This document shows, piece after piece, positions 20,711 to 54,527 of a stretch of DNA of 64,000 nucleotides (position 1 is the stretch's first letter; the number at the start of each line of letters is the position of its first letter). The notes below the pieces were generated by a model. The model saw nothing but the letters and a program-made list of their open reading frames with translations. It made no database searches and was not told where the DNA came from. Source of the DNA: Candidatus Woesearchaeota archaeon. Lineage in GTDB: Archaea; Nanobdellota; Nanobdellia; Woesearchaeales; JABIAG01. The stretch spans positions 68,772 through 132,771 of the forward strand of contig JABIAG010000001.1 in assembly GCA_018653365.1 (NCBI GenBank), given 5' to 3'. The translations under genes were made by a program, and so were the position numbers.

Positions 20711-20715
20711 TAAAA

Positions 20716-24259: not shown

Positions 24260-24770
24260 TGACGCACTACTTTACGATCAAACAATGTATATCATAAAAA
24301 TGATTTTTCTAGCAGCAACAGTAATCACAATAGTAGTCTTAACCTATGTTTTTTCATTTCAAACAATAAAAACAGACGTATTAGAGATACAAACATTAAT
24401 CGAAGAAACATATTCGTCCCCCCAAGTATTTGCATATCAAGACACATTAACAAAAAGAGCATATCCGGGCATTATTGATCTAGAAAAGTTCAAAACATTA
24501 AACCTCAATGAGATAATACAAACAAATAGAAATGACATCATAATGAAAGTACGCTTACTCGATGATGCTTCTGAAGAAGTAACCATAAAATACTTCATTC
24601 CTACTAAAGAGCCAACAGCCGAAGTTTTTCAAATAGCAGAGACACTAATTAAATACCCAGAAAGAACAACAACATTAACAGATTATCCTTTATTAAAACC
24701 TGTAACAATACTGAAAGATGGAGAAATGAAAAGAGGAACGCTAGAGTTTTATGCTATCAAACAAAAATGA
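24252..24770 (+). CDS. Membrane-anchored protein (172 aa) in the pilin-like operon. No KG leader
   Basis: 'MSDDALLYDQTMYIIKMIFLAATVITIVVLTYVFSF' has an N-terminal TM helix. It overlaps its neighbours by 8 and 4 nt. Confidence 0.4.
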   Translation: MSDDALLYDQTMYIIKMIFLAATVITIVVLTYVFSFQTIKTDVLEIQTLIEETYSSPQVFAYQDTLTKRAYPGIIDLEKFKTLNLNEIIQTNRNDIIMKVRLLDDASEEVTIKYFIPTKEPTAEVFQIAETLIKYPERTTTLTDYPLLKPVTILKDGEMKRGTLEFYAIKQK

Positions 24771-25408: not shown

Positions 25409-25416
25409 ACATTAAA

Positions 25417-34518: not shown

Positions 34519-35514
34519 TTATGAAACTCGAGCATTTAAGTCAACTATTCTATTATTAGTTGTACTTTTTAATTGGGCATTAGAATAGTGCGTATTTTGT
34601 TGTGAGATAACAAAATTCTGTAAGTTAGTATCCAAAGAACCAACCCAGTAAATTTTCTTACCTGTCATAATTGGCTTGTAACCATTATAATTAGTGTTAT
34701 CTAAAAATAATAATGGCGAATTAGAATAGGCAGCAAATAAAGCAGCTAATAAAGCATCATCTTCATTATCTGGATCAATTACAACAACGCTAGAAATTGC
34801 GGTCCAAAAATCAAAATAAGCATTTTGATCTTGAGGGTTCAAATGCTCACGCAACCCTGCAGAAACTTTGTTTGTTTCAGTAATATACCCAAAACTATTG
34901 CCTTTCATTAAATTAGTTAACTCAGTAGCAGAAGGAACAGATTTAAAGTTATACGCCCTTAAAGGGTAATGAGTTAAAGAGTTATCTTCACTCCAAACAG
35001 CAAGAGGAATAATCTTATGAAGGTTCTCCCAAGCAATACCTCTTGAAGAGGTAGCAGGAGTTAAAAATATGGGATTTTGAGAATACTTATTCATATTTTT
35101 TAAGTTCTTAGAATAAACATGAAGCAATATGCTTTTTTCATCAGTGCCTGCAGGTCCAACAGCCTTTAATTCAATTTCATAATCCCCTGGCTCTTGATAA
35201 ATATAACTAAAACTTGATCCTGTATGATCTGGAATTTCATCCCCATCAACATACCAAAAATAGTTGGTGACAGAACTATCTGTTTGAGCTTCAAAGAAAA
35301 CTTCATTTCCTGAATAAGCAATGCTATTATGAACGGGTGAGGTGATAGTGACCTGAGTTTGTACTGTAGAACTATATCGTTCAACTTGTTGAGAGGCATC
35401 GTCGGTTCTATCTCTAATAAAAAATAATGTTAAACCTATCATTATAATTGCAATAATTAGAACAACAATAAGAGTTGTACTAATACTTATTGATCCTTTT
35501 TTCATTTGTTTCAT
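34519..35514 (-). CDS. Class III signal peptide (pilin-like) protein with a PKD-like domain (331 aa)
   Basis: 'MKQMKKG/SISISTTLIVVLIIAIIMIGLTLFFI', and 'YFWYVDGDEIPDHTGSSFSYIYQEPGDYEIELKAVGPAG' is PKD-like. Confidence 0.5.
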   Translation of the reverse strand: MKQMKKGSISISTTLIVVLIIAIIMIGLTLFFIRDRTDDASQQVERYSSTVQTQVTITSPVHNSIAYSGNEVFFEAQTDSSVTNYFWYVDGDEIPDHTGSSFSYIYQEPGDYEIELKAVGPAGTDEKSILLHVYSKNLKNMNKYSQNPIFLTPATSSRGIAWENLHKIIPLAVWSEDNSLTHYPLRAYNFKSVPSATELTNLMKGNSFGYITETNKVSAGLREHLNPQDQNAYFDFWTAISSVVVIDPDNEDDALLAALFAAYSNSPLLFLDNTNYNGYKPIMTGKKIYWVGSLDTNLQNFVISQQNTHYSNAQLKSTTNNRIVDLNARVS

Positions 35515-37673
35515 CTTAATATAATCTCCAGGTCATAAAATAATGTGTTTTGAGATGATTCTTCAACCCATTTTCCACTTACACAACTTCCTCCAACATC
35601 AAAAATATCTAACACTTTTGAATCTGAAATGTAGGTCCAGGTCTCTCCTGAATCATCACCACAACAAGGCGCATTAACCGTTCCAGTCGGAGAGGTTTCA
35701 GCCCAACAATATTGCTCGTTATCAGTATCACAAATTCCTGAATCTGCAATTCCTACTTGTGTTCCTTTCCAGGTACAATGTCTAGGATCATTATCTGGAT
35801 TATTCGCACAATTAGCATAATAATTACAACCATTCAAATCAGGAGTACACTGCAAAGGAGTGTTGGTACAATCATCATTACAATCAGCAACACCATCTAA
35901 ATCAGCATCAATAACATTTCCCGAAATATCACAATCTGGGTCTAAACCAAAACATTCAGCATCAGAACAAATATTGTCACAAGTTGTAGAGCAAAAGTCT
36001 TCTTCAACACAAAACTGAGACACTCCTGAACAGATAAGATCCGCAGCACAATAACTTTGTTCACCTAAACAATCATCACATAAACAAGATTCCCCAACAT
36101 CACAAGTGTTATCATCATCACAAGTTTCAATCTCATCACTTCCACACTCATCATCACAAGTGCCATCTAAACAACGACGCGTCTCACTAGGACAACCACC
36201 AAATCCAACTTCTACAATAAAGGATTGTTCAACATAACGTTCTGAATCACTCACGTTTAATGTAATCCTCTCAGAACCCTGCCACAATAAAGGCGCGGTA
36301 AAATTAACGATGGATGTGCTTGGATTATATTTAACTTTAATAGTATTATTTCCTCTAAATTTAATGCTTAAACTTGAAAAGGCGTCATCTACATCAGAAA
36401 CATACCTAGAGATGTTTAAGGCATAATGCGCACCTTCATTAAACGTAATCTTTGGAATTGTCGTAATTGTTGGAGGTAGGTTAGTAATGTTAACAAAAAT
36501 AACTTCTGAGTTAAAATTGCCTTGTGTATCATTAACTAAAATATCGAGCCAATATACTCCTTTACTAAGCGCAGTTGAATTTAGACTACCTGAACAGTTA
36601 ATTTCAAATCGAGAATCATTCACATCAAAACAACCCACTTCACTAATTACATCCTCCGCAACAATAAGGGATTCAACACTTTCTTGACTAGTAAAAGTCA
36701 AATTATTGATCGTTGTAAAAATTGGGGGTTGGGTATCCTGCGTAAGCGTAAATTCTTTATTAACAACATTGCCTGCAACATCTTTAGCCCAAATAATAAC
36801 TGTATTAAGTCCTTCTAAACCTGGAAAAACAAAAGGGTCATTACAATTAACCGAAACTGTTGCATCAAGAGTGTTTACATACCAACAAGAATCTAGGTTT
36901 TCATCAGCAACAATCACAGTAAGTTCTTGGGATTGCGCCGAGTAATGATAAGACGTAGCAAAAACAGGATCTACGGTGTCAATTGAAAATGCGATAGATT
37001 CATTAATCTCATTATTAGCTAAATCCCTAGCAAAAAAAGTAAAATTATAGTTTCCATCTGCTAACGTAATTGTTGTAGCTGTTGTGTAAGTAAAAGAATC
37101 AGTCCCATTAGAATACCATAGTGTGTTGCTAGCATCATCTGAAGAAAAATCAATTAAAATATTATTCTGATTGTAAGATGTATTTTCAGGAGAGGTCACG
37201 GTTAAAATTGGGGGAGTGTTATCAAAAACACAACACACCTTGTTTGTGTAAGCAGAACAATCTCCAACATGAGCATCCTCTGTTCCAGATAAAGACATAA
37301 TACACTCATCACTTCCACACGTAGCATCCATATAACAACTATTTACATTACCCAAACAAACATCATTTACATAATTAGTCGAATCACCAGCATGTTGATT
37401 AAATGGAGTTGTAGAAACAGTTCCTGATAACGAGATTAAGTACGTGTCAGAACAACCATCACTAATGCTTGCAGTAATTCCTTGACAACATAGGTCAAGA
37501 CTTGTTTCAGAATATCCATAATATGAAACATGAGAATTTGTTAAAGAATAAACTGATAAAACTCCCGTTTCACCACTGTCACATTCAGACTTAAACGAAC
37601 AAACATCCGCAAGTGCAGGAGCAGCAGCTAATAAAACAAATACAAAAATTAAAAAAATATTTATTCTTTTCAT
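35511..37673 (-). CDS. Secreted Cys-rich surface protein (720 aa) with Ig-like repeats and a C-terminal Cys/Asp-rich module
   Basis: Signal peptide 'MKRINIFLIFVFVLLAAAPALA', and '...CPSETRRCLDGTCDDECGSDEIETCDDDNTCDVGESCLCDDCLGEQSYCAADLICSG...'. Confidence 0.55.
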   Translation of the reverse strand: MKRINIFLIFVFVLLAAAPALADVCSFKSECDSGETGVLSVYSLTNSHVSYYGYSETSLDLCCQGITASISDGCSDTYLISLSGTVSTTPFNQHAGDSTNYVNDVCLGNVNSCYMDATCGSDECIMSLSGTEDAHVGDCSAYTNKVCCVFDNTPPILTVTSPENTSYNQNNILIDFSSDDASNTLWYSNGTDSFTYTTATTITLADGNYNFTFFARDLANNEINESIAFSIDTVDPVFATSYHYSAQSQELTVIVADENLDSCWYVNTLDATVSVNCNDPFVFPGLEGLNTVIIWAKDVAGNVVNKEFTLTQDTQPPIFTTINNLTFTSQESVESLIVAEDVISEVGCFDVNDSRFEINCSGSLNSTALSKGVYWLDILVNDTQGNFNSEVIFVNITNLPPTITTIPKITFNEGAHYALNISRYVSDVDDAFSSLSIKFRGNNTIKVKYNPSTSIVNFTAPLLWQGSERITLNVSDSERYVEQSFIVEVGFGGCPSETRRCLDGTCDDECGSDEIETCDDDNTCDVGESCLCDDCLGEQSYCAADLICSGVSQFCVEEDFCSTTCDNICSDAECFGLDPDCDISGNVIDADLDGVADCNDDCTNTPLQCTPDLNGCNYYANCANNPDNDPRHCTWKGTQVGIADSGICDTDNEQYCWAETSPTGTVNAPCCGDDSGETWTYISDSKVLDIFDVGGSCVSGKWVEESSQNTLFYDLEIILR

Positions 37674-37675
37674 TC

Positions 37676-40600
37676 TTATTTAGGTATCCAACAACGGAAT
37701 TGGTTAGAGGCTGTATCTGCGCTGAACCACAAAAGACTCTTTCCACTGGCCGCTTTATATATAGTTCCTCTATAACTTCCGTGGTAAGCAGAATCACTAA
37801 GCCATTCACGTTGTAAATCTCCATCTATTCCAGTAAGTTGAGTGTTAAATCTCGCTGCGCTAATATGCCATTCTTCTTGAGTTGGAAGACGTCCACCAAA
37901 TTCATCAAAGCAATACATAGTTGCATCATACCAATCTTTGGTAGTTCCAGAACCTTGATTAATTTGCATACAGCCTAATTGTCTATTTTGTCCGCCTTCA
38001 ATACTTACAAATTCGGCAGGACAATTAATTTTCAAATTGTTAACAATAACTTTCCCTGCATCCACTTTAAGTGCACTTTTAGGAGTATCAAATAGTAATT
38101 GAAAGACCAGATCTAGGTCTGCACTACTTGAATGTCCGTCAGGATACGCATTATTCTGGTTTGCTTTGCAACTTCCTCCTATAAGATGAAAGGTATACGT
38201 TTGATCTTTAACTAAATTGAATGTTCCAAAAGAGGAAATATCATAATTAATCCAACCATCCGAGGATTTAACACCGACAACATCTTCATACAAAAAGGAT
38301 CCAACCCCATTTTGATTAGTTTGAATTCCATTATAAAGAATTAATTTAACTGATGAAGGAGTAGTTGTTGGAGCATAGACTCTTAAAGTTTTCAACGCAT
38401 CATTTGTTGGTGCTTTAAATGTTTGCTCGAGACCTCCGGCAGCATTAGTTTCCGCATGCTCTTCGTTTAATCCTATGGTAAAATCGCTTTTTACATCAAG
38501 AATTCCCTCAGGTTGACTGGTCCCAATACCCACATTGCCGCCCATAATTGCCATGGTGTTGTCCTGTGTTACAACAGTTCCGGTTTGATCATTTAATCCT
38601 ATTGCAATTGAATAGTCACCTTGTGCTTCTATTCCTCTACCTGTTGCTATTGAATGAGTGCCTGAAGCAATTGTATAATATCCTAGTGCGATTGAGTCAC
38701 TGCCTACTGCACGGGTGTTACTTCCTATTGCTGTTGATGCACCTCCTACGGCAGTTGTTTGATATCCCATTGCGATGGAGGCTTGACCTACTGCTATTGT
38801 GTTATGTCCCATTGCTGTTGAATAAGGTCCTTCGGCTCGTGTTTCTTTACCCATAACGGTTGATACACTACCTATTGCCCATCCGCCTTGACCCATTGCA
38901 GTTGAATACGGTCCATACGCATGTGATAAGTGTCCCATTGCGGTTGAAAAGTGTCCTGTACCATATGTTACGCCTCCCATTGCAGTTGAGGCACTTCCTG
39001 TGGCAGTGGTTTGGAGACCCATTGCTGTTGAAGCTTGTCCTTCCGCTATTGTTTCACTACCCATTGCTATTGCATAATCTCCGGTTGCTATGTTATCAGA
39101 ATGCCCTATTGTTGCAGAACCTCCTGTATCTCCTTGAACTGCCGACGATCCAGAATCTACATCTAATCTTACTGTGGGATTAGGTGTTCCAATTCCAACA
39201 TTTCCATCAAGATTTACATTAAACGTTGTTTCTGCGTCATTTACTATCCTAAAATCTCCAAAAACATCAAGTTTGGTAATTGGTGTATTTGTACCAATTC
39301 CAATCCTTTCTTCAAATTCAATAATTTGTCTAAAAAATGAAGCTGAAGTAAACGTCTGACCAAACATATCAAATATATATTCTCTTATTTCTTCTTCAGA
39401 TCTTGCAACTAAATTCAGATCATCCATGTCTTCACCACGTAAATATCGAGTAAGAACAATCAAATCCCCAAAATTAAATTGCCCATCTCCATCAAGATCT
39501 AAATCGTCATAAATAAGCTCGACAGCATCTACCATTTCTTGGGGGGTGTTTGTTGCAAACGTAAGATCATCTACATAATTACCAATCAAATCTTCTGGAG
39601 ATCCTAATCCCTGTGATATTAAGGGTAAGTAAACATTTTCATAATTATAAATGATATACATGTCCGTTATGGTGAACACGCCATTGCCATCAATATCTAA
39701 TTTACTCCCCATCACAAATCCATCAACATCTAATTTACCTTTTGGCAAAGTAGTTCCAATTCCGACATTTCCATCATCATCTACATAAACTACATCTACG
39801 GGATCTCCATCTGCAGAAGATAATGAATTACTGCTTAAACTATCTAAACAGTTTCCATTTCCATCACATATAGTTCCTGTAGTAGTTAGGTCTCCTGCTG
39901 CATTTATATTTCCATTGACATCAAGTGCTTCAGTTGGATTCTGATTGTTTACTCCTACTCGGTTATCTGAAGTTATAGATAATATATCTGAAAAAAATCC
40001 TTTGTTAATGCCTAATCGGTTTTCTGTAGCATCAGCAGAAATTGTCCAATCATTATTTGCATTTTTGAGTTTTAAACCAGTTCCCTGACTATCTACTGTT
40101 TCTACCTTAATGTAATTTCCGTGATTAGCTCCCTTAAGATGAAGAAGTTCTTCTGGATCTGTAATCGCTCCAATTCCCACCTTTTCATTATAAATAATTC
40201 CGTTAGTAGTGCCATCGTTCCATTTTCCTGTTTCAATTCCTGTAAGTCTTGATCCATCTCCAATGAAGTAATCTGCATACATCTCACCATCTAATAAAAT
40301 CTGTGTTGGAGATGTGGGTTCATCATTACCAATCTGAAGAACTCCGCCATCATTTAATAAATTAACATAATTACCTAATCCTCCCCTGCCATTATTATCA
40401 TGCAATATTATTTCGGCTTCATTATTTGAGATTACTAGATTTCCTGAAAGAGTCATGTTAGTTCCAACAAAATTGTTCTGAGTTATTACATCTGCTTGAG
40501 AATAAAAGTAGTCTGGAATTAATAACTCATTAATTTGAACATGGTTGCTAAAAAGTGCTTCTCCTGAAATTCGAAGTGCAAGATCTGAAGGGTCAGCAGC

Positions 40601-43600
40601 AGTCAGAGTTAATCCACGTCCAGAAATATTTCCTTCAACAGATAATGCTTTTGAGTTAGTTCCCAAATTTCTTATATTAACATCACCTAAAAAATCAAAG
40701 TTTCTGTCTTTATCTATAATTAAAAAATTACGTCCTGAATAAGGTACTGCTGGATTAGCATCATTATTTCCTAATATGAAACTATCTCCTGCAGTTTTAA
40801 ATAACCAATTATTGAGACCGTTTTTAGAAAAAGCTAGGATGCTATCTTTAGCACTATCAATTTTTATAGCACTAAAGTCTTCTATTCCTGTTCCTGCATC
40901 ATACACGTGAAGGTTTGCATGAGGTGAAGGTGACGTAGTTCCCATTCCAACATTTCCCTCATTTGTTACTGTAAGAAGATTTTCATCGCCTCCTGTAGCT
41001 TCTTTTACTATAAAATTACTATCTCCCATTCCTCCTATTTTTACAATTACATCTTGATCATTATGGCCTTGTAATTCTAAATTATTACTTACTGCAGGAA
41101 TGATTCCCCCATATCCTGCTCCTGATCTTAAAATTATTCCATCTGTATTTGTACCTACTGTTAAGGTTCCATCTTCAATATATACTTCGTGTTCTCCACC
41201 ATATCCATCACCTTCTATGTGGAGCATTGCATTAGGGGTTGGTGTTCCAATTCCCACATTTCCATTTTTCTTAATTGCTAGCCCTGAGTTCCAAGTTGCA
41301 TCATCAAAATAATCAAACAAAAGAGTTCCTGGGTCTGACATGTCCTCACCATATGCTGTAATCATCCAACCTTTGTTACCTGAACCCGCATTACTTTCTT
41401 CAAGGGTTTTTGTTGTATCTGGACGTGCAGTGTATAATTTTATTGCATTATTATCATTTGAATTGCCAGATAATACTAACTCTGAAGCGCCAGTAGGATT
41501 GAAGATGTCTAATTTTTGAAGAGGTGCATTGATGCCAATTCCAACATTACCATTATTATAATAAACTTCTGCACCTGCAGCAGCACCAGCATCATTATAC
41601 ACTAGTTGGCCATCAGTTCCTGCAATCGGACCCGGTTCACCATTACAAATATTTTCCTCAGCAATAAACGTATCCGCACCAGTGTAAGCGCCATCAGAAT
41701 CAGTATCCTCATAAATAAGAACGTTAAGTCCGTCAAAAGGACAACTTCCTGATGTACCTGAAGCGGTTGTGTAAACTCCCATGTTAATTCCATCAAGTCC
41801 TGGAAAACCTTGGGGGCCTTTAAGATTAGTGAAAAGTGCCCAGTTAAGTGAGACCCTTTTATAAACATCTCCTGTCGAACTATCTAAATAAAAATCTCCG
41901 TCTTTTCCAATGTTAGCAGCTGTTGGAGCAGCGTTACCACTAATCCAGGTAACGCCATCTGCGCCAATTAATCCTGTTGGAGAACCAATCCAGTTACCTG
42001 CGTCATCAATAACATCTATTCCATTTATTCGCAATGAATTAGCAAAGTTATCTATGTTCATCGAGTTAGTATTTGGAAAGACTGCTAAATTAACTATTGC
42101 ATGAGTTCCACCGATTGTTTGAATACGTAACTGCTCTCCTCGGGTTATATCCCCAGTTGAAAGCCAGGCTCCGCCACTTCTTCGGAATACTGAAGCAGAT
42201 CCACCTGTAGCAGTATCAACACGGTTTTTAATAACATTAATAGCAAGAGGGTCTCCTGCCCAAATAAACCCATTCATTTTTTCAGCCACAACTTCTACAG
42301 AGTATTCTTTAACAATGCCTGTAAGTTGTGAACCATCACCAATAAAAGAGTTAGCAGTAATATCTGCAGTAGTTGTAGAACCTCTTCCAGCAACTGTAGA
42401 AAGAGTATCTGCTTCTGAATTAAGAGTCGCAATTGTATCTGGATGAATGTCATCCGCAGTAATAGTTTCATCTAAAATTTTATCAGAAGTAACTGAATTT
42501 GCAGCTAGTTTTTCAGTTGTAACAGCTAAATCATCAATTTGATCTGTGTTAATTGTATCTAATAACGCTAGAGCACCAAGCCCAACAATGTTGGCAGGAT
42601 TAAGATTTGTTAACGCAGCACCATTTCCTGAAAAGAAATCTGCAGTAACGGTTCCAACTATGTCTAAAGCAGTACTTGGAACTTTTCCAATGCCCACCCA
42701 GGTGTTAGCAGAATCGTAATTAACATTAGCGCCTGCAGCAGCGCCAGCATCATTGAAAACAAATTGACCATCTGTTCCTGCAATTGGGCCTGCGGGGCCA
42801 TCCGCACCAATAATTGTAGCAATAACTTCAGTCCAGGTTGTAGCATCTGTTTTTTTGAAAACTTTACCCGAAATAGTATTTAAATAAAGATCATCAATAG
42901 TACCAACTGTACTAATTGGTTCTATAATTCCGCTAAGAACTGCTTCACCTTTCGGACCAGTAATATCATTTGTTGTTTGATTTGAACCATCAACATAATT
43001 AATTGTTAAAGAACCATCAGTCTCATGATCTATGGAAACAATTCCTTTTCCATGACAAGCATATGTTTCACCAATTAATTCATCAGTTCCAGATTGATAT
43101 CCTGAAGTTGAGCCTTCTTCAGAATAAAAGGTAATCTTTTTACCGCCAGCATCACAATTAGGTCCAACGGGTTCATCATCAAAATGAGTTAAAGGAACAA
43201 TTCCTGTAGAAGGACCGACCCATTCACCATTAAAATCAATAATTTTTATTCCATTAAGTGAGATACTACCGTCATTGCTAATAATAAAATCATTTAATTT
43301 AAGAAGATCACCCTCTCCTGCTTGAGTTCCCCAAAGTAAAGGAATTCCTGTCACACTAGAAAAAAAGCTTTCCATACCTGTTTGAAAAGGGCTTGGATTT
43401 GAGGTACATTCACATCCCTGCATAAATCCGCCAGGGAAACCACCAATTTCACAAGCATCATTTTCTTGAACTTCACAACCATCAGCATCAAGTTTATCTC
43501 CTCCATTGTTACAAGCATAAAAGTTAGGTTCACATTGAAGATTTTCTGCAGTTTCCGAACAACTAGAACCATAGATTACATGGTTAGCATTAAAAGCAGT

Positions 43601-44086
43601 TGAACTAAATTGAACTTCGCAACCATCTCCTGCATCACCATTACAATCTCCAAAGTCTTCTACGCTATCTCCATCTATATCTTTACAAGTTCCACAAGTT
43701 GCGTCACCCCAAGCGTTAGCTGTACAGATGGTTTCAAGATTGCCTTCTTCACAAGATTGTTTTGGACTACACCAAGCTTGTCCGCCATTATCACAAGGAG
43801 CGTCTGTTGCATCATTGCTATAACAGTCAACAATAAATCCTCCACTTGATGGAGCACCAGCTATTGGTTGGGATGCCGTCTCAGAATCTGTTGGTGCGAA
43901 GACCAAATCAGAAACATAACAAATGTATTCACCACAAATGTGTTCATTACTGCCTGCAGCATCGCAAGAGACTGCCCCCTGTGTTGAGGGACAGGCCGCA
44001 GGATTAGCTGCCCATAATTGTTCGCTTGCACTTACAAAACTAGTGAACATTAAAACTACAAATATTAGAGTTAGTATTTTCATCAT
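37676..44086 (-). CDS. Giant secreted fibre/adhesin-like protein (about 2136 aa). It has an N-terminal signal peptide, duplicated beta-repeat regions, YadA/Hep_Hag-like head repeats (nt about 38560-39140) and a C-terminal C-type-lectin-like domain (about 37676-38070)
   Basis: The start 'MMKILTLIFVVLMFTSFVSA' sits 8 nt after a GGAGGAGG SD (the track start at 44113 is less likely). 'STAMGxxTxAxGxxS' 14-mer repeats occur about 12 times. The C-terminus reads 'CPAEFVSIEGG..C....TKDWYDATMYCFDEFGGRLPTQEEW...C'. Confidence 0.7.
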   Translation of the reverse strand: MMKILTLIFVVLMFTSFVSASEQLWAANPAACPSTQGAVSCDAAGSNEHICGEYICYVSDLVFAPTDSETASQPIAGAPSSGGFIVDCYSNDATDAPCDNGGQAWCSPKQSCEEGNLETICTANAWGDATCGTCKDIDGDSVEDFGDCNGDAGDGCEVQFSSTAFNANHVIYGSSCSETAENLQCEPNFYACNNGGDKLDADGCEVQENDACEIGGFPGGFMQGCECTSNPSPFQTGMESFFSSVTGIPLLWGTQAGEGDLLKLNDFIISNDGSISLNGIKIIDFNGEWVGPSTGIVPLTHFDDEPVGPNCDAGGKKITFYSEEGSTSGYQSGTDELIGETYACHGKGIVSIDHETDGSLTINYVDGSNQTTNDITGPKGEAVLSGIIEPISTVGTIDDLYLNTISGKVFKKTDATTWTEVIATIIGADGPAGPIAGTDGQFVFNDAGAAAGANVNYDSANTWVGIGKVPSTALDIVGTVTADFFSGNGAALTNLNPANIVGLGALALLDTINTDQIDDLAVTTEKLAANSVTSDKILDETITADDIHPDTIATLNSEADTLSTVAGRGSTTTADITANSFIGDGSQLTGIVKEYSVEVVAEKMNGFIWAGDPLAINVIKNRVDTATGGSASVFRRSGGAWLSTGDITRGEQLRIQTIGGTHAIVNLAVFPNTNSMNIDNFANSLRINGIDVIDDAGNWIGSPTGLIGADGVTWISGNAAPTAANIGKDGDFYLDSSTGDVYKRVSLNWALFTNLKGPQGFPGLDGINMGVYTTASGTSGSCPFDGLNVLIYEDTDSDGAYTGADTFIAEENICNGEPGPIAGTDGQLVYNDAGAAAGAEVYYNNGNVGIGINAPLQKLDIFNPTGASELVLSGNSNDNNAIKLYTARPDTTKTLEESNAGSGNKGWMITAYGEDMSDPGTLLFDYFDDATWNSGLAIKKNGNVGIGTPTPNAMLHIEGDGYGGEHEVYIEDGTLTVGTNTDGIILRSGAGYGGIIPAVSNNLELQGHNDQDVIVKIGGMGDSNFIVKEATGGDENLLTVTNEGNVGMGTTSPSPHANLHVYDAGTGIEDFSAIKIDSAKDSILAFSKNGLNNWLFKTAGDSFILGNNDANPAVPYSGRNFLIIDKDRNFDFLGDVNIRNLGTNSKALSVEGNISGRGLTLTAADPSDLALRISGEALFSNHVQINELLIPDYFYSQADVITQNNFVGTNMTLSGNLVISNNEAEIILHDNNGRGGLGNYVNLLNDGGVLQIGNDEPTSPTQILLDGEMYADYFIGDGSRLTGIETGKWNDGTTNGIIYNEKVGIGAITDPEELLHLKGANHGNYIKVETVDSQGTGLKLKNANNDWTISADATENRLGINKGFFSDILSITSDNRVGVNNQNPTEALDVNGNINAAGDLTTTGTICDGNGNCLDSLSSNSLSSADGDPVDVVYVDDDGNVGIGTTLPKGKLDVDGFVMGSKLDIDGNGVFTITDMYIIYNYENVYLPLISQGLGSPEDLIGNYVDDLTFATNTPQEMVDAVELIYDDLDLDGDGQFNFGDLIVLTRYLRGEDMDDLNLVARSEEEIREYIFDMFGQTFTSASFFRQIIEFEERIGIGTNTPITKLDVFGDFRIVNDAETTFNVNLDGNVGIGTPNPTVRLDVDSGSSAVQGDTGGSATIGHSDNIATGDYAIAMGSETIAEGQASTAMGLQTTATGSASTAMGGVTYGTGHFSTAMGHLSHAYGPYSTAMGQGGWAIGSVSTVMGKETRAEGPYSTAMGHNTIAVGQASIAMGYQTTAVGGASTAIGSNTRAVGSDSIALGYYTIASGTHSIATGRGIEAQGDYSIAIGLNDQTGTVVTQDNTMAIMGGNVGIGTSQPEGILDVKSDFTIGLNEEHAETNAAGGLEQTFKAPTNDALKTLRVYAPTTTPSSVKLILYNGIQTNQNGVGSFLYEDVVGVKSSDGWINYDISSFGTFNLVKDQTYTFHLIGGSCKANQNNAYPDGHSSSADLDLVFQLLFDTPKSALKVDAGKVIVNNLKINCPAEFVSIEGGQNRQLGCMQINQGSGTTKDWYDATMYCFDEFGGRLPTQEEWHISAARFNTQLTGIDGDLQREWLSDSAYHGSYRGTIYKAASGKSLLWFSADTASNQFRCWIPK

Positions 44087-44087
44087 T

Positions 44088-46115
44088 TTAATTACCTCCT
44101 CCACAACAAGCAAACGCTTTTCCCACGTTACAACTAGTTACGGTACTTTTTCCACCATTATCATTAAATACCCAATATCTTCCATAAACGCTTGTATGGT
44201 CTGTTGTCCAACCATCACAATCTGTAACTGCAACAGTGTTATATCCTGGTGGGCCTCCATTAATCCAGGCCTGTCCTGTCCAACCAGGTAAAGAAGTTAA
44301 ATCTTTATCATTAATAGTATTAAAAATTTCTTCAACAGTACAAACATGAGTTCCTGCTAGCGCTGTGTTGATATCAGTAGAACAAACATTGTTTGCACCT
44401 TTATATCCGTTTAATACATTTCCATTAGATGTTGCAGAGGTTCTACCAACAAAGTAAGTTTTAGATCCTGAAGTTCCTCCAGTACCTGAACAAGTTTCTG
44501 CAGTACCTAATTGGGTGTCAGTAACGCCATAACCGGGAGTACCATCATCATCAAGATAAAATGTAATTAAATCACCGCCATTAGTACAACTAGTAGCACC
44601 CCCTGTAGTAGTATGAACTAAAGGATTTGGTCCAACAGCTCCATCATTACCTGCATCTCCCTTTATTGTGGTGATTTTGTTTTCCCATCCTGTTGCTGTT
44701 TTTATAAGTATTTGAAAAGTGTCTGTTCTTAAATAATAATCATTTTCTACTGCAGTAGTTGCAGAAGTTTCATCAGTACCGGAAAACCAGGTAGCGCCAT
44801 TAACTCCATTTGTTCCGTCTACTCCGTTTGTGCCGTCTGTTCCTGCAGCACCTCGTAAGTCTGATGTTGAAAGTGTTGAGCCATCTGAGTATGTTAGTGT
44901 TAGTATTCCTGTTGTAGATTCGTATGTTGTTGAACTAATACCTACTCCATCAGTACCGTCTGCACCATTGGCTCCATCAGCACCATTTGTGCCGTCTGTT
45001 CCTGCAGTACCTCTTAGGTCTGTTGTTGAAAGTGTTGAGCCATCTGAGTATGTTAGTGTTAGTATTCCTGTTGCAGATGCGTAGGTTGCGGAACTAATGC
45101 CTACTCCGTCAACACCATTTGTTCCATCCACTCCATTAATTCCATTTGTTCCGTCTACTCCGTTTGTGCCGTCGTTTAGTGTTGTGGTTGTAGCTCCACA
45201 GGTTACGGTGTGGGTTCCGTCACCATTATTTGTAATAGTACAAGAGTCTCCATCCACCCCATCAATTCCATTTACTCCGTTTGTGCCGTCGTTTAGTGTT
45301 GTGGTTGTGGCTCCGCAAGTTATGGTATGAGTTCCGTCACCATTATTTGTAATTGTACAAGAGTCTCCATCAGTCCCATCCACTCCATCTGTTCCTGCAG
45401 TTCCTCGTAAGTCTGTTGTTGAGAATGTTGTTGCATCTGAGTAAGTTAGTGTTAGTATTCCTGTTGCAGATTCGTATGTTGCTGAATCAATACCCACTCC
45501 ATTAGTTCCATCAATTCCATTAGAACCGTCTACTCCATTTGTTCCGTCTATGCCGTTTGTGCCGTCGTTTAGTGTTGTTGTTGTAGCTCCACAAGTGATT
45601 GTATGAGTTCCATCACCATTATCTGTAACAGTACAAGAGTCTCCTGTTGCACCAGTAGCACCTCGTAGGTCTGTTGTTGAGAATGTTGTTGCGTCTGAGT
45701 ATGTTAGTGTTAGTATTCCTGTTGCAGATTCGTATGTTGCTGAACTAATACCTACTCCATCAGTACCGTCTGTACCATCAACACCAGGGGGGCCTTGAAA
45801 TTCATTCCAACCCGTGTTATCACAAACATAAATTTTATGTTCAGTAGAATCATAATACATAGAACCCTCATTACAAGTTGCTGGTGCACTAGTTAATGGA
45901 AGTAATCGCAATACGTTTTTAACAGTAAGATCATCGGTAACTTCTGCAGCGTTATCAATACCTGCACCAACATCTCCGGAGGAAGTGATTGTCAGAGCTG
46001 ACGCTATGGTCCCTGGATCTATTTGCGAAGCTGGGTGACCAGGATCAGTGTTTGCCTGGGCTAGTGCTGTTAATAATAATAGCATTCCAACTACCAAAAC
46101 TCCAAGTTTTTTCAT
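44088..46115 (-). CDS. Secreted collagen-like (G-x-x) tandem-repeat protein, 675 aa, with a globular Cys-containing C-terminus
   Basis: Signal peptide 'MKKLGVLVVGMLLLLTALAQA'. Five units like 'VGISSATYESATGILTLTYSD...DLRGTAGTDGVDGTDGDSCTITNNGDGTHTITCGATTTTLNDGTNG' each carry GxDGxNG triplets. GGAGG SD upstream. Confidence 0.7.
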   Translation of the reverse strand: MKKLGVLVVGMLLLLTALAQANTDPGHPASQIDPGTIASALTITSSGDVGAGIDNAAEVTDDLTVKNVLRLLPLTSAPATCNEGSMYYDSTEHKIYVCDNTGWNEFQGPPGVDGTDGTDGVGISSATYESATGILTLTYSDATTFSTTDLRGATGATGDSCTVTDNGDGTHTITCGATTTTLNDGTNGIDGTNGVDGSNGIDGTNGVGIDSATYESATGILTLTYSDATTFSTTDLRGTAGTDGVDGTDGDSCTITNNGDGTHTITCGATTTTLNDGTNGVNGIDGVDGDSCTITNNGDGTHTVTCGATTTTLNDGTNGVDGTNGINGVDGTNGVDGVGISSATYASATGILTLTYSDGSTLSTTDLRGTAGTDGTNGADGANGADGTDGVGISSTTYESTTGILTLTYSDGSTLSTSDLRGAAGTDGTNGVDGTNGVNGATWFSGTDETSATTAVENDYYLRTDTFQILIKTATGWENKITTIKGDAGNDGAVGPNPLVHTTTGGATSCTNGGDLITFYLDDDGTPGYGVTDTQLGTAETCSGTGGTSGSKTYFVGRTSATSNGNVLNGYKGANNVCSTDINTALAGTHVCTVEEIFNTINDKDLTSLPGWTGQAWINGGPPGYNTVAVTDCDGWTTDHTSVYGRYWVFNDNGGKSTVTSCNVGKAFACCGGGN

Positions 46116-46133
46116 TTTGTAATTCCTCCGTTA

Positions 46134-46694
46134 TTATTCATTTAATCCACCTCGAATTTCAACATTAATCTGTTGTGAGGGATGAAAACTAATTTTATGT
46201 GAAGCAATAGTTAATAATTTTGAATCAGCATTAAAAGAAATAGAGACGCCGCCAAACATTTTTTCAATATTTGAAAGGTCAAGAGAATAATAATTATTTC
46301 CTGAATAAAATAATACTTTGTTAGTTTTAGTTATGAAATTAGAGGTAGTGGAAAATTCATTAATCTTAGTATACTCTCCAAGTGTGCTCTTTAATACTAG
46401 TTGTAAATTTCTTGGGGTAACGCCGTTTTTGAAAGTGTACTTAATTAAATCTTGATTATTTTCACTTCTTACCTCTTTGTTAGCAACAACCTGAAGCTCA
46501 TTCTTATCAATGTCATAAGCAAAATCATTAATTACCAAACCATCTTCTATTGTTGGAGGACTAAGAATGGTGTTTAACTCAATTGCGGCACCTGTAGAAG
46601 AATCAACATCTTTGATTACAAAAAATCCTGCTACTAATATGCCTAATGCAATTAATACAAATAAATTGTTCTTAGTTTCGTGTTTCATTTTCAA
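46134..46694 (-). CDS. Membrane-anchored or secreted hypothetical protein (186 aa)
   Basis: N-terminal hydrophobic helix 'LFVLIALGILVAGFFVI'. It overlaps the upstream gene by 23 nt. Confidence 0.4.
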   Translation of the reverse strand: MKMKHETKNNLFVLIALGILVAGFFVIKDVDSSTGAAIELNTILSPPTIEDGLVINDFAYDIDKNELQVVANKEVRSENNQDLIKYTFKNGVTPRNLQLVLKSTLGEYTKINEFSTTSNFITKTNKVLFYSGNNYYSLDLSNIEKMFGGVSISFNADSKLLTIASHKISFHPSQQINVEIRGGLNE

Positions 46695-47382
46695 ATTTTT
46701 CCTTCATTCTTTCTAGTCGTTTAAACGCATCATCCAATTCTTGATCTAACTTTTGATAAACTGGTTTTTCTACAGGTTTTGGGATGGGTCGCTTTTGAAT
46801 TGGCGCATTCAGTGATTGAATTGGAACTTGATGACTTTGCTTTGGTTGCTTAATTGGGGGCGGTACTGAACGTGTTGGTAAGGGAGGTAGTGTTTTATGA
46901 ATTTGTGAGGGTGTATGAAGATGAGGTAGGTCTAAAGACTCTTTTGACTCTTTTATTGGCTTAAGGGGGTTAGATTTTTTCTTTTTCTGAATAACTCTCA
47001 CCACTAGAATCGCTATTACTATAATCATAACAATTATTACAGTACCTAAAATCATTTCAGCTGAAAACTTAAACGATGTTGGAGCAAAAAGTTCTGGGGG
47101 GGGTTCGGACACATCACTTAGGGTTGGGTCTGTTCCCTGATTAAACTCCTCTAAGTTAGAGATTCCATCATTATCAAGGTCTTCCTGAGCATCAGTAGCA
47201 CTATCAAATCTTAAACCGAACATCATTTCCCATTCATCGGACATGCCATCATTATCAAAATCTCCTGGAAAACTATCTTGTTCATCAGGAATTCCATCAC
47301 GATCAGTGTCTTCAATGGCTAGAGCTAAAGGAATTAAAACTAGAATTACTAACATTAAACTCAACATACTACTTTTTTTCAT
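46672..47382 (-). CDS. Small surface protein (236 aa) with TSP3-like Ca-binding repeats, a C-terminal TM helix and a basic Pro/Lys-rich cytoplasmic tail
   Basis: Signal peptide 'MLSLMLVILVLIPLALA'. 'DTDRDGIPDEQD..DFDNDGMSDEWE..DLDNDGISNLEEFNQGTDPTLSD', then TM 'ILGTVIIVMIIVIAILVV' and a K/P-rich tail. Same architecture as the C-terminus of the 1..13464 product. Confidence 0.6.
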   Translation of the reverse strand: MKKSSMLSLMLVILVLIPLALAIEDTDRDGIPDEQDSFPGDFDNDGMSDEWEMMFGLRFDSATDAQEDLDNDGISNLEEFNQGTDPTLSDVSEPPPELFAPTSFKFSAEMILGTVIIVMIIVIAILVVRVIQKKKKSNPLKPIKESKESLDLPHLHTPSQIHKTLPPLPTRSVPPPIKQPKQSHQVPIQSLNAPIQKRPIPKPVEKPVYQKLDQELDDAFKRLERMKEKFENETRN

Positions 47383-47753
47383 TTTTTAATTCTTCCCTCA
47401 TATAAATTTCAATCTTTTTTGATAACAAAAATGCGTTTTTTTCACAAAACTCTCTATAAGAATCATAAATTTTAGCATCAATACTAAATGTAACCTTCTT
47501 TTTTTTAATCAAAGTAGTGTACAAAACGTTAATCCTTATATTTAAATCTTTTTATTTAATTTGACTTCTTTTTATTTCCTTCTGCTTCTTTTAACTCTTT
47601 TTTACTTCTGTTTACTTCTTTGTAAGTATAGTTTGTGCCGGCCATCAGTTAAATTTATAAACAACCCACCAATTCCAGTATACATTACCAAACCTGCATG
47701 AGGTGAAAAAAAATGCAGATTCTCATGAGTGTTTGGTTAAGGAGAAAAATAAG

Positions 47754-49628: not shown

Positions 49629-51113
49629 ATGAATAAAAAATTAGTGGTGACACTGCTGGTATTGCTGTTTGTATTCTCACTAGGAATTCGACTCTACTTT
49701 GTTTTTCAAACACCTCATTTCAACTTGGGGGACTCATATTTTACTGAAAGACAGGTAACAAGCATACTTGAAACAGGATTGCCAAATTATATTGATGTTT
49801 TAAGCTTTTCAGGCAAGACCCAGGCATTTGTACCTTTATTCTATTATATTCTTGCGTTGTTTAATACGGTCATGCCCTTCTGGTGGGTTGGAAAATTAAT
49901 ACCCAATATTTTGGCTTCATCAATAGTATTTTTCTCATTTATATTAGCAAAAAGAATAACCCGAAGTGACGTTGCTGCACTTCTCACTGCATTCTTATCT
50001 GCATTTATTCCCATATTTTTTATCCAAACACTCAACAACATTTCCCCCTATTCGATTGTAATCCCTTTAATGTTGTATCAACTTTATTGTTTTATGGAAA
50101 AAAAGTTCACAATGTTTGGAATATTGGCAGTACTTCTTCCTTTAATCCATTTTTCAGCAGTAGTTTTACCAATAAGTTTAGTGGTATTTGTTGTAATATC
50201 ACGAATAGAACGTTTTAAGGTAAAAAAACCCTACGCAGAAATGATTATTTTTTCTTTAGTACTAAGTTTATGGTTATTATTAGTATTTTACAAACAAGCA
50301 TTCGCATTTCATAGTTTTGAAATAGTATTCAAAAATATGCCTTTCAGTGTAATCGGACAACACTTTGCAGAAGTCAATCTTGCAGAAGCAATATACCTCA
50401 CTGGAATAATTCCGTTCATATATGGTATGATCTCCCTCTATAAATTTTTATTCCGAAAAAGATTTTTTGAAGGATTTTTAATGATATCTCTTGTAATCAC
50501 CCCTGCATTACTGCTTTGGTTAACATTTATTGAAGTAACACAAGGAATTCTTTTTTTAGGGGTATTTGTAACAATATTGTTTAGTTCACACTATAATTCA
50601 ATTAAAGCTTTTGTTAAGAAATCAAAATTTTCTCATATAAAATATTATCAACACTATTTTGTGGTATCATCTATAATCGCATTTGTTTTAACATCAGTAT
50701 TGCCCTCCTTCTTTTTAGCAGGGGCACTAGTTGACACAAGCTTAAACGAAAACGAATTTCAGGCAATGACCTGGATAGAAGAAAACACCCCCCCCGATTC
50801 AGTAATTTTAGCACAGTTAGAAGAAGGAAATGCAATTGCATCAATAGCTAAAAGAAAAAATGTAATCGATAGCAACTTCTTATTGGTAAGAAATATAAAT
50901 TTGCGACACAGAGAATTTGAAAAAATGCTAAATTCACCTTATAAAACAGAAACAATAAGCTTAATGAACAAATACCAGGTAAACTACGTTTATATTTCAA
51001 AAAGAAAGATCGTTAACGTTTTTGAAGACAAATTCCAAGGAACTTGTTTTGATGAAGTATTCACAAATAATGATGTAGACATATTTGAGGTAAAATGCGA
51101 AATTCGAACATAA
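49629..51113 (+). CDS. Polytopic membrane protein (about 11 TM helices plus a C-terminal soluble domain), putative GT-C-type glycosyltransferase
   Basis: Its topology and size resemble ArnT/PMT/AglB-like enzymes. It has paralogs at 51095 and 54528. Confidence 0.4.
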   Translation: MNKKLVVTLLVLLFVFSLGIRLYFVFQTPHFNLGDSYFTERQVTSILETGLPNYIDVLSFSGKTQAFVPLFYYILALFNTVMPFWWVGKLIPNILASSIVFFSFILAKRITRSDVAALLTAFLSAFIPIFFIQTLNNISPYSIVIPLMLYQLYCFMEKKFTMFGILAVLLPLIHFSAVVLPISLVVFVVISRIERFKVKKPYAEMIIFSLVLSLWLLLVFYKQAFAFHSFEIVFKNMPFSVIGQHFAEVNLAEAIYLTGIIPFIYGMISLYKFLFRKRFFEGFLMISLVITPALLLWLTFIEVTQGILFLGVFVTILFSSHYNSIKAFVKKSKFSHIKYYQHYFVVSSIIAFVLTSVLPSFFLAGALVDTSLNENEFQAMTWIEENTPPDSVILAQLEEGNAIASIAKRKNVIDSNFLLVRNINLRHREFEKMLNSPYKTETISLMNKYQVNYVYISKRKIVNVFEDKFQGTCFDEVFTNNDVDIFEVKCEIRT

Positions 51114-52480: not shown

Positions 52481-52522
52481 AAACGATAAGGTTTAAATAG
52501 GAATCAATAGTTATTCTAAGAT

Positions 52523-54443: not shown

Positions 54444-54527
54444 GCAATTATATTAATTGAGAAATTAATCAAAACTAGAGAATTAAGTTCAAATATCTTT
54501 TTAAAACAAGTTTAGTTCTTATATTAT

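Follow-up and report, generated by a model that had tools for sequence, protein, structure and literature searches.

How might the cells of a DPANN archaeal lineage take hold of their partners, and could a cluster of large secreted proteins with the look of phage tail fibres belong to that task? The host-recognition molecules of DPANN archaea have been stated as unknown (PMC11329633), and the most diversified genes in Nanoarchaeota populations are those for cell-surface proteins (PMC6142677). We analysed a 64-kb stretch of DNA (the window) from a tiny marine Candidatus Woesearchaeota archaeon, a member of the DPANN; the proteins carry this name in their annotation, and contigs reach 1.1 Mb. 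Positions 34519-47382 hold six co-directional genes on the minus strand, which we consider, with moderate confidence, to be a native chromosomal operon encoding an extracellular fibrous adhesin apparatus. Since the host is a DPANN archaeon, an attachment apparatus is the most economical reading of the cluster. Its features, in the order of transcription, are as follows.

47369..47524, minus strand: 51-aa ORF just upstream of gene 1, overlapping the start of gene 1 by 14 nt
46672..47382, minus strand: gene 1, 236 aa; signal peptide, calcium-binding-type TSP3 repeats, transmembrane (TM) helix, basic Pro-rich tail
46134..46694, minus strand: gene 2, 186 aa; signal-anchor helix at the N-terminus, then a domain without a family
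44088..46115, minus strand: gene 3, 675-aa secreted collagen-like protein; Collagen 36.2 bits (Pfam cut-off 27.2)
44827..45390, minus strand: tandem DNA repeats in the collagen-like gene, with 159-bp and 117-bp units (Tandem Repeats Finder)
37676..44086, minus strand: gene 4, 2136-aa secreted fibre; signal peptide, modular repeats, C-terminal tip
38597..39031, minus strand: YadA-type head of the fibre; eleven 14-residue repeats (S-T-A-M-G motif), residues ~1686-1830
37679..38056, minus strand: C-terminal tip of the fibre, ~120 aa, ending in FRCWIPK; an uncurated C-terminal domain family
35511..37673, minus strand: gene 5, 720-aa secreted protein; 44 Cys, Ig-like middle domains, Cys-rich ends
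34519..35514, minus strand: gene 6, 331 aa; KKG and a hydrophobic helix, PKD/Ig domain, C-terminal domain

An earlier note, made from the letters alone, had described a six-gene operon with gaps of 18 nt or less or overlaps, and all of its ORF coordinates proved exact. The junctions between the ORFs are -23, +18, about +1 (counted from the ATG start), +2, and -4 nt. In public gene calls the fibre begins with the ATG at 44086 and is 2136 aa long, in place of the 2145-aa ORF at 37676-44113, and gene 2 has 184 aa. A 2145-codon ORF and six abutting ORFs at 33-41% GC cannot be explained by chance, and four of the six genes are conserved at the protein level in a distant relative. GGAGG lies 5' of two genes: 9 nt before the ATG of the 675-aa gene, and, as GGAGGAGG, 8 nt 5' of the fibre ATG. 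The note had assigned these sites to the two largest genes, which is right for the fibre gene but not for the 720-aa gene, before which there is no GGAGG. All six products carry an N-terminal hydrophobic segment, either a signal peptide or a membrane anchor. The cluster is flanked by RadA/TRAM and by ribosomal protein S2/RadB, and glycosyltransferase genes are found near it. Two JGI assemblies from this population also list the 51-aa ORF among their called genes, with 100% identity; it matches no Pfam family, looks ribbon-helix-helix-like by eye only, and could represent either a regulator or one more gene, the seventh.

Behind its signal peptide, the giant fibre has a Cys-rich N-terminal domain. 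Next come eight NVGIGT-type repeats such as tail fibres have, a weak dockerin/EF-hand-like segment, the YadA-type head, and, last, the tip. A YadA-like head had been proposed, and it is borne out: YadA_head scores 76.6 bits over 5 stretches (Pfam cut-off 25), and solved adhesin heads in the PDB match directly (BpaC, 7o23, E=8e-16; CbpF, 2e-8; EibD, 9e-5; YadA, 0.015). The head DNA has periods of 42 and 84 bp. Phage proteins match as well. By tblastn, fibre residues 1578-1851 and 714-766 match tail spike or fibre genes of cultured Flavobacterium, Verrucomicrobia P8625, and Erwinia phages, and a tail-fibre family, phrog_9942, matches at E=2e-10. The broader description of secreted, fibre- or adhesin-like proteins with modules of both phage tail fibres and adhesins thus holds across PHROG, PDB, and tblastn comparisons.

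The fibre tip belongs to a sizeable family: an exhaustive profile search returned 334 cluster representatives at E<=1e-3, of which 191 reach E<=1e-10, with the domain C-terminal in 128 of 150 hits and often preceded by NVGIGT repeats. No Pfam or PHROG model covers it. Members occur in Nanoarchaeota (another DPANN group), in the CPR groups Saccharibacteria and Moraniibacteriota, and in Flavobacteriales; one homologue lies in the structural module of a tailed-phage contig, whose portal matches phage portals at E=7e-48. The C-type-lectin-like tip of the earlier note stands as a C-terminal tip domain. Its lectin fold is only hinted at, by sub-threshold matches to FGE-sulfatase (E=7.7e-4 to 1.9e-4) and the intimin lectin-like domain (E=0.06 to 0.32), because both structure predictions were of low confidence (pLDDT 39 and 43).

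The 675-aa protein contains eight G-x-y runs of 4-7 triplets each, which alternate with a 32-aa unit (four copies) and a 27-aa unit with two Cys (three copies). A collagen-like stalk is supported insofar as Collagen scores above the Pfam cut-off, but the runs are short and broken by these units. phrog_1806, "collagen like minor tail", matches at E=5e-17; the NCBIfam matches, SclB (E=1.2e-9) and Lcl, fall far below the cut-offs of the models. A Cys-containing globular C-terminal domain (residues ~550-675, window 44091-44468) matches no curated family, and is 44% identical to the homologue P0039 and 57% to the orthologue at locus L012. The 720-aa protein was correctly described as Cys-rich and secreted, with its 44 Cys and N-terminal hydrophobic segment. 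Big_13 scores 28.6 bits, no family matches the ends, and the protein is 51% identical to a full-length orthologue (P0037); it is the best-conserved component of the cluster.

Three products are anchored. In the 236-aa protein, the predicted TSP3 repeats, TM helix, and basic tail are all present: TSP3_bac scores 34.5 bits (Pfam cut-off 25), and a second TM helix at residues 102-135 is followed by the basic, Pro-rich tail. Its ectodomain resembles the pre-TM module (43% identity, E=2e-13) of a giant ORF at 1-13464, an ORF with the same arrangement of TM helix and basic tail. The 236-aa protein thus copies the anchoring part of this giant surface protein nearby, and it is a candidate membrane anchor with a cytoplasmic tail. 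The 186-aa protein matches nothing in Pfam, NCBIfam, or the PHROGs. In the 331-aa protein the PKD domain is confirmed at 29.8 bits (Pfam cut-off 23.5), an Ig-like domain of T4 Hoc matches at E=1.3e-4, and the C-terminal half matches no family; the protein is 45-47% identical to the L003/L012 orthologue. Pilin-like accessory proteins, in the plural, were too generous: a class-III-like N-terminus (KKG, then a hydrophobic helix) is present in this protein only among the six, and its match to the NCBIfam UpsB pilin, at E=0.014, is far below the model cut-off. The functional tie that the note drew to a plus-strand pilin-like array is likewise conjectural.

We suggest the following arrangement. The collagen-like protein and the fibre would be exported by Sec and assemble as trimers, because G-x-y runs and YadA-type 14-residue head repeats are known only from structures of three chains. 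At the C-terminus, each has a globular domain stabilised by Cys, which would lie distally and make contact with the target; that of the fibre is perhaps C-type-lectin-like. The likely target is a glycan or a surface protein on a partner cell or particle. A membrane anchor is lacking in both fibres, and the task of keeping them on the cell would fall to the three anchored products (the 236-aa TSP3/TM, 186-aa signal-anchor, and 331-aa PKD proteins), perhaps also with the sequon-rich, Cys-rich 720-aa protein, and the conserved Cys-rich N-terminal domain of the fibre is a possible attachment point. The trimeric state, the distal end, the anchoring partners, the ligand, and the role in host attachment are all what we infer from sequence. 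In this manner, the six products are good candidates, on sequence grounds, for how such cells grip a partner.

The gene order collagen-like, fibre, Cys-rich, PKD recurs in a relative at ~50% identity, with identities of 57% for the collagen-like C-terminus, 36% for the fibre N-terminus, 35% for the fibre tip, 51% for the Cys-rich protein, and 47% for the PKD protein. Within the cluster itself, which is what the comparison covered, four genes are kept in order; the middle of the fibre has diverged in the relative and has no YadA head there. Replacement of the middle with retention of both ends would be the pattern expected of a recognition fibre. N-x-S/T sites are scarce in both fibrous proteins: the fibre has 3 against 26 expected (the reverse motif occurs 28 times), the collagen-like protein has 0 against 12 expected, and the relative's fibre has 1 against 24 expected. 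The 720-aa protein shows no depletion, with 14 sites here and 18 in its orthologue. Such avoidance would suit proteins that meet an archaeal N-glycosylation machinery and in which selection acts against glycosylation. The purge is shared with the ~50%-identity orthologue and not with the phage and bacterial tip-domain proteins, in which sequons have not been purged, and this points to long residence in the present archaeal lineage. Within the sampled population, which is essentially clonal, assemblies are identical save for one repeat unit. The tandem repeats of the collagen-like gene are the only site of difference: one assembly has an extra 159-bp unit, giving 728 aa versus 675 aa, all mismatches over about 20 kb fall at 45074-45150, and five other contigs break off within this gene. 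The tips show no within-population diversification, of the kind that a host-range determinant might show.

Three other explanations deserve weighing against a native adhesin operon. The one we take most seriously, though we give it only a minor share of the probability, is a general envelope or matrix: a coat, sheath, or aggregation matrix, S-layer-associated or glycocalyx-like, that would stick cells to particles or to one another non-specifically, in place of a device for recognising a specific partner. The export of every product, the resemblance of the Cys- and sequon-rich 720-aa protein to many archaeal envelope glycoproteins, the strong ribosome-binding sites that suggest high expression of both fibres, the clonal population with invariant tips, and the nearby glycosyltransferase genes would all suit it. 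No S-layer family matched in Pfam or NCBIfam, however, and both the modular turnover of the fibre between two kept ends and a tip family common to a phage structural module are traits that recognition fibres show more typically than lattice proteins do. The fibre tip could also be a variable region that a diversity-generating retroelement (DGR) hypermutates by means of a reverse transcriptase whose gene lies in another part of the genome. Known DGR variable regions are C-terminal C-type-lectin folds of tail fibres and of DPANN and CPR surface proteins (PMC8144416), and the weak FGE-sulfatase and intimin matches of the tip lean the same way. Yet no copy of the tip DNA that could serve as template repeat exists anywhere in the window, no reverse transcriptase was matched among the window proteins scanned against Pfam, and the tip DNA is identical between independent assemblies; we regard this explanation as very improbable.

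A domesticated or remnant viral module, whether receptor-binding genes now serving the cell or a cryptic integrated element or tailocin-like particle, was the origin that the earlier note had raised, and we hold it to be quite unlikely. It would account for the PHROG tail-fibre and collagen-like minor-tail matches, the cultured-phage tail spike or fibre genes, the tip homologue in a phage structural module, and a neighbour of the P0039 homologue that bears YadA_head together with the tail-fibre chaperone domain Peptidase_S74. The same modules are frequent in cellular adhesins too, and the setting is cellular: the 64-kb window has no capsid, portal, terminase, baseplate, or integrase genes, the flanks are core cellular genes, and each product has a cellular export signal. 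In the comparison of codon usage and GC that the note had thought worthwhile, the cluster does not stand out at third positions: fourfold-degenerate ones have a GC of 0.13-0.23 there, against 0.13-0.33 in the rest of the window, and the raised GC of the cluster sits in codon positions 1 and 2. Pattern scans of IMG/VR, likewise, found no relative. Together with the shared sequon purge, these observations leave nothing that supports a recent viral origin.

The proposed adhesin apparatus can be set beside several known systems. Trimeric autotransporter adhesins (YadA, BpaC, EibD, CbpF) share the 14-residue-repeat head, with direct sequence similarity, and the form of a long modular surface fibre. 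They are Gram-negative proteins, whereas the archaeal host has no outer membrane, and the archaeal fibre has neither their C-terminal beta-barrel anchor nor their stalk (PF03895 and PF05662 do not match). Its C-terminus is a globular tip, so its presumed polarity is reversed, and its anchoring would need separate membrane proteins. Tail fibres and spikes of tailed phages are trimeric, as the archaeal fibres would be, and modular, combining collagen- or YadA-like segments and NVGIGT-type repeats with a tip for binding at the C-terminus. The archaeal cluster differs from them in being chromosomal and free of virion genes, in its Sec/anchor signals and co-encoded membrane proteins, in its native codon composition, and in avoiding sequons, which the phage homologue does not; nor does its fibre have an intramolecular chaperone domain (no Peptidase_S74 match in Pfam). 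DGR variable proteins of phages, DPANN, and CPR resemble it in that a tail fibre or surface protein ends in a small domain, possibly of lectin fold, but here the window lacks the template repeat and reverse transcriptase and the tip is invariant.

Bacterial collagen-like surface proteins (Scl1/Scl2, Lcl, BclA, Pasteuria) serve attachment in known cases, and they too have G-x-y segments followed by a C-terminal globular domain and vary in repeat number between strains. In the archaeal protein the runs are short, small repeat units of two kinds break them up, an anchor such as LPXTG is missing, and the C-terminal domain belongs to no curated family. Giant or modular surface proteins of other DPANN archaea, for instance at a Nanoarchaeota locus (L008), invite comparison as well. 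At L008 the likeness lies in the fibre and its setting. Its accessory genes are different, and its fibre is without a collagen-like partner, YadA head, or sequon depletion; nevertheless, that fibre is 2143 aa long, bears the same tip domain in three copies besides its NVGIGT repeats, and has other very large secreted proteins as its neighbours.

We think it rather likely that the minus-strand cluster at 34519-47382 is an operon native to this archaeon that encodes extracellular fibres, probably trimers; membrane proteins of the same operon would hold them on the cell, and the C-terminal binding domains that they present would serve attachment to a partner cell or surface. Six ORFs of 236, 186, 675, 2145, 720 and 331 codons lie head to tail on this strand, exactly where the earlier note had placed them; public gene calls take the ATG at 44086 as the start of the fibre gene, for a protein of 2136 aa. 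Successive junctions measure -23, +18, about +1, +2 and -4 nt. GGAGG stands 9 nt 5' of the 675-aa gene and GGAGGAGG 8 nt 5' of the fibre gene. Strong ribosome-binding sites had been claimed for the two largest genes: this holds for the fibre gene, while the 720-aa gene has no GGAGG and the 675-aa gene has one instead. A TTTATAT box lies about 20 nt 5' of the ATG of the 236-aa gene. The start of that first gene is overlapped by a conserved 51-codon ORF (MYTTLIKKKKVTFSIDAKIYDSYREFCEKNAFLLSKKIEIYMREELKNEKK), called by other pipelines and without a Pfam match; by eye, its predicted strand-helix-helix pattern resembles small ribbon-helix-helix regulators.

Features of the cluster and its surroundings
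1-13464, plus strand: giant ORF of at least 4487 codons, running past the window start
13461-27444, plus strand: array of 13 ORFs of 124-850 aa
34519-47382, minus strand: six-gene operon
37679-38056, minus strand: tip, the C-terminal domain of the fibre
38597-39031, minus strand: YadA-type head repeats of the fibre
44827-45390, minus strand: 159-bp and 117-bp tandem repeats in the collagen-like gene
46030-46050, minus strand: PGH motif of the collagen-like protein
47369-47524, minus strand: 51-codon ORF
49629-55823, plus strand: run of envelope-glycosylation-type genes, including two PMT_2-like GT-C proteins of 494 and 431 aa, one glycosyltransferase of family 2 (411 aa) and membrane proteins that match no family

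An N-terminal hydrophobic segment is present in all six products. The 675-aa, 2136-aa and 720-aa proteins carry cleavable-looking signal peptides, and the 236-aa, 186-aa (signal-anchor helix) and 331-aa proteins look membrane-anchored. The first gene, a TSP3/TM/basic-tail protein in the earlier note, encodes a signal peptide, TSP3 repeats (TSP3_bac, PF18884, 34.5 bits over two stretches, cut-off 25), a TM helix and, as its tail, a basic segment rich in Pro. The giant plus-strand ORF ends in the same manner: it has Asp-rich repeats of the TSP3 type, a TM helix and a long tail that is basic and Pro-rich, and its pre-TM segment is 43% identical to the 236-aa ectodomain over 63 aa (E=2e-13). Given this shared segment, helix and tail, the 236-aa protein looks like a free-standing copy of the giant ORF's anchor. 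The last product, of 331 aa, contains the PKD domain attributed to it (PF00801, 29.8 bits against a cut-off of 23.5), and the Ig-like domain of T4 Hoc matches it at E=1.3e-4; look-up of a 328-aa strain variant returned no record. Its N-terminus, MKQMKKG-SISISTTLIVVLIIAIIMIGL, places KKG before a helix, a pattern found in the plus-strand array, where most ORFs open with [KR][KR]G and then a hydrophobic helix, as class-III or type IV pilin-like leaders do. The UpsB pilin model reaches 15.5 bits on the 331-aa protein (E=0.014; model cut-off 70). None of the 12 array ORFs scanned exceeded any Pfam family cut-off, and no prepilin peptidase, assembly ATPase or platform protein was recognised within the window. 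The 186-aa protein, residues 135-331 of the 331-aa protein and the two ends of the 720-aa protein gave no match to any family.

The 675-aa protein had been called collagen-like, and it passes the Collagen model (PF01391) at 36.2 bits against a cut-off of 27.2. Its G-x-y segments form eight runs of 4-7 triplets each, alternating with small repeats, four of 32 aa and three of 27 aa with two Cys each; these segments, the longest only 7 triplets, would presumably form a stable triple helix. A resemblance of the C-terminal domain to endostatin or DUF1554 was considered and rejected, with no Pfam match at E<=5 and no PDB match. It recurs in a homologue (P0039) and a neighbouring 173-aa protein, which adjoin an 804-aa protein with YadA_head and Peptidase_S74 that aligns to fibre residues 1630-1983 at 34% identity. 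This neighbourhood indicates that the domain is paired with a YadA-type fibre elsewhere too. At residues 23-35, immediately behind the signal peptide, stands the motif (N)PGH-x-A-S-[EQ]-I. It also occurs in 9 of 149 representatives of the tip family discussed below (P0048, P0062, P0076, P0091, P0114, P0117, P0127, P0133 and P0138), and may represent an N-terminal start module that such secreted fibres have in common. A two-Cys module, C..GG..I...dG......C.G, lies at residues 510-542 of the collagen-like protein, at about 311-344 and 782-814 of the fibre, and at 683-723 of the fibre of a relative (contig L012); it corresponds to Pfam DUF7151, significantly in the relative (E=4e-13) and weakly here (E=0.028).

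The fibre runs from a Cys-rich N-terminus through eight NVGIGT-type motifs, a dockerin/EF-hand-like stretch (weak, below cut-off) and the head to a tip of about 120 aa. Eleven 14-residue S-T-A-M-G repeats make up the head, which matches YadA_head (PF05658) at 76.6 bits against a cut-off of 25 and solved adhesin heads in the PDB at E=8e-16 (BpaC) to 1.5e-2, confirming the YadA-like head that the earlier note had proposed. No relationship was detectable between the N-terminal Cys-rich regions of the fibre and the 720-aa protein.

The tip belongs to a broad family for which neither Pfam nor PHROG has a covering model. A profile of the tip and one homologue, run on 1.84 billion cluster representatives, yielded 334 proteins at E<=1e-3, of which 191 reach E<=1e-10. 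In 128 of the 150 best matches the tip stands at the very C-terminus; these proteins measure 88-3718 aa, and many have a signal peptide and NVGIGT motifs. Members are placed in Flavobacteriales, Saccharibacteria and Moraniibacteriota; one is a Nanoarchaeota fibre of 2143 aa with three tips, among other giant secreted proteins; and one lies on a contig that also has genes for terminase, portal and adaptor, in the same co-directional block as the portal gene (E=7e-48 against phage portals) and some 3.4 kb downstream from it. The Nanoarchaeota locus (GCA_042572295.1, 1-26432) is a DPANN locus dense in very large secreted proteins: one of at least 4525 aa (Laminin_G_3, beta-helix), the fibre with its tips in tandem, a 1029-aa Laminin_G_3 protein and one of at least 1499 aa. 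A genome-collection scan with one narrow pattern returned three loci, all bacterial. This Woesearchaeote's own tip was not returned from the species-representative collection, though the pattern fits its MYCFDEFGG; the representative assembly of the species may lack the tip region, or the region may have failed to assemble.

A lectin-like fold of the tip is unproven. FGE-sulfatase scores 19.6-21.6 bits on it, under the cut-off of 23.3, with matches in 6 of 34 members (best E=1.9e-4), and the intimin lectin-like domain gives sub-threshold values of E=0.06 and 0.32; both sit on one motif, W..A...C..GGrLP. AlphaFold2 models, each from a 2-sequence alignment, reached a pLDDT of 39 for the collagen-like C-terminal domain and 43 for fibre residues 1880-2145, and Foldseek found no match in the PDB for either at E<=0.001. 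The beta-rich part preceding the tip drew faint carbohydrate-binding-module-like matches in Foldseek. Profile-profile comparison of the tip with the collagen-like C-terminal domain was not significant (probability 0.3).

Selection on the fibres is suggested by their N-x-S/T sequons, for which expected counts were taken from shuffling each protein. The fibre (2136 aa) has 3 where 25.9 +/- 4.4 are expected, and within it the reverse motif numbers 28, N-S/T 20 and N-x-x-S/T 18.

N-x-S/T sequons in further proteins, observed and expected
Collagen-like protein, 675 aa: 0 observed, 12.2 expected
331-aa protein: 0 observed, 4.7 expected
186-aa protein: 0 observed, 2.9 expected
720-aa protein: 14 observed, 11.4 expected
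Fibre of the relative (L012, 913-7095): 1 observed, 23.9 expected
733-aa protein of the relative (L012): 18 observed, 10.6 expected
Nanoarchaeota fibre (P0041): 32 observed, 28.0 expected
Flavobacteriales protein (P0096): 44 observed, 31.2 expected
Phage-contig protein (P0040): 6 observed, 8.8 expected
Giant ORF, 1-13464: 46 observed, 57.3 expected

The depletion recurs in the relative's fibre and not in the Cys-rich proteins of 720 and 733 aa; it is slight or absent in the Nanoarchaeota, Flavobacteriales and phage-contig proteins and in the giant ORF. We infer that the fibres pass an archaeal oligosaccharyltransferase and that selection keeps them free of N-glycans, for which trimer packing, or avoided self-binding by lectin-like tips, could be the cause. 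Within the window no gene for AglB was recognised. Such a purge is an unusual sign of selection on an exported protein, legible in sequence alone, and it could serve to find similar fibres in other archaea.

Related genomes and populations show what is kept and what varies. The 720-aa protein finds one full-length homologue other than itself, 51% identical, and the two contigs that carry this homologue, from a relative, keep the gene order: a collagen-like C-terminus (57% identity), a fibre gene of 2060 codons, the Cys-rich protein and the PKD protein (45-47%). Good alignment of the two fibres is confined to their ends, with 36% identity in the Cys-rich N-terminus and 35% in the tip; the middle has diverged, and the relative's fibre is without the YadA head and with the DUF7151 module. 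Conserved ends with an exchangeable shaft are a known pattern of receptor-binding (phage) fibres, and by analogy the kept ends and diverged middle seen here would fit it. Over about 20 kb, independent assemblies differ solely by one 159-bp unit within the tandem repeats at 44827-45390 (728 against 675 aa); this could be real copy-number variation or assembly collapse. Five further contigs end inside the collagen-like gene.

The genomic setting bears on the origin of the cluster. Identical proteins were found on contigs of up to 1.1 Mb annotated as Candidatus Woesearchaeota archaeon, one assembly being GCA_018648745.1 and one sample source being Saanich Inlet water at 200 m. RadA and a TRAM-domain gene flank the cluster on one side, and ribosomal protein S2 and RadB on the other, with the glycosylation-type genes just past S2/RadB; an RPA-like protein, an aIF5B-type translation factor and glycosyltransferases lie farther out, and no tRNA or Rfam RNA was found within the window. 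From these flanks and annotations, the window is cellular chromosome, not virus.

The earlier note had suggested a domesticated viral tail-fibre module, a reading that we now hold to be very improbable. Its support is a partial similarity to tail fibre families, covering at most 13% of the fibre: in a PHROGs run on the six cluster proteins, phrog_9942 matches the fibre (E=2e-10) and phrog_1806 the collagen-like protein (E=5e-17), and tblastn matches the fibre to annotated phage tail fibre/spike genes at E=2e-6 to 1e-4. Against it stand the cellular flanks, a native third-position GC and the sequon purge shared with the relative, which makes a recent arrival from a phage or bacterium less likely. 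No virion structural genes surround the cluster, the other window ORFs having cellular matches or none. Cluster GC is 0.38-0.41 against about 0.32-0.34 in the flanks; we rejected this elevation as a sign of gene transfer because the excess lies in codon positions 1 and 2 and stems from amino-acid composition. Fourfold-degenerate third-position GC is 0.13-0.23, inside the range of other genes (0.13-0.33), and the cluster's larger codon-usage distance is common to the four other minus-strand genes measured. In tblastn against cultured phages, neither the collagen-like protein nor the phage-contig tip protein found a match, and IMG/VR scans for the tip, the collagen-like C-terminal domain, the 720-aa protein and the whole fibre returned no relative, a weak negative with few exact peptide patterns.

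That the tip is a DGR target is an idea we rejected for this window and regard as extremely improbable: the tip-coding DNA has no template repeat in the 64 kb, it is constant between assemblies, and none of the window proteins that were run against Pfam matched a reverse transcriptase. A non-specific envelope or matrix role is unlikely. The reading that we favour remains that of native attachment fibres.

To our knowledge, every cultivated DPANN archaeon is attached to a host, and we know of no Woesearchaeote in culture; the literature yielded none. For a DPANN archaeon, a specific host-recognition role of the operon is plausible. The host-recognition molecules of these archaea have been stated to be unknown (PMC11329633), and surface proteins are reported in the literature to be the most diversified genes in Nanoarchaeota populations. 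The operon offers a concrete candidate set: two fibres, three membrane-anchored proteins and one Cys-rich protein. A bolder proposal, which we put forward tentatively and consider doubtful, is that the operon serves partner recognition, as an organ for it, in a marine Woesearchaeote that is widespread and uncultivated, with trimeric, deliberately unglycosylated fibres, a tip from an unnamed binding-domain family shared by tailed phages, CPR bacteria and DPANN, and sequon removal as a functional adaptation. If true, the tip family would be a receptor-binding toolkit common to viruses and ultra-small attached cells, and sequon loss in the fibres, though not in the co-encoded Cys-rich protein, could, for example, stop lectin-like tips from binding glycans of their own cell.

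Among known systems, one close comparison is with trimeric autotransporter adhesins. Head repeats are common to both, but the C-terminal 12-stranded beta-barrel (YadA_anchor, PF03895), present in all bacterial proteins found through these repeats, has no match in the fibre at E<=0.1, and the stalk/neck (PF05662) has no Pfam match there either. The autotransporters end in this barrel, an anchor in the outer membrane, whereas the fibre ends in its tip and belongs to an archaeal host. The lack of anchor and stalk indicates that the fibre uses a YadA-type head and is not a trimeric autotransporter; the operon shows such a head in use without the bacterial anchor. Every module type found here was known before, and DPANN and CPR genomes commonly encode giant surface proteins of modular build. 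We found no description of such an archaeal system in the literature. What is new is the occurrence together, in one archaeal operon whose anchors are separate, of a YadA-type head and interrupted collagen segments, the sequon purge, and the unnamed tip family common to phages and ultra-small bacteria, whose 334 cluster representatives, as yet uncurated, link phage tail fibres to surface fibres of ultra-small archaea and bacteria.
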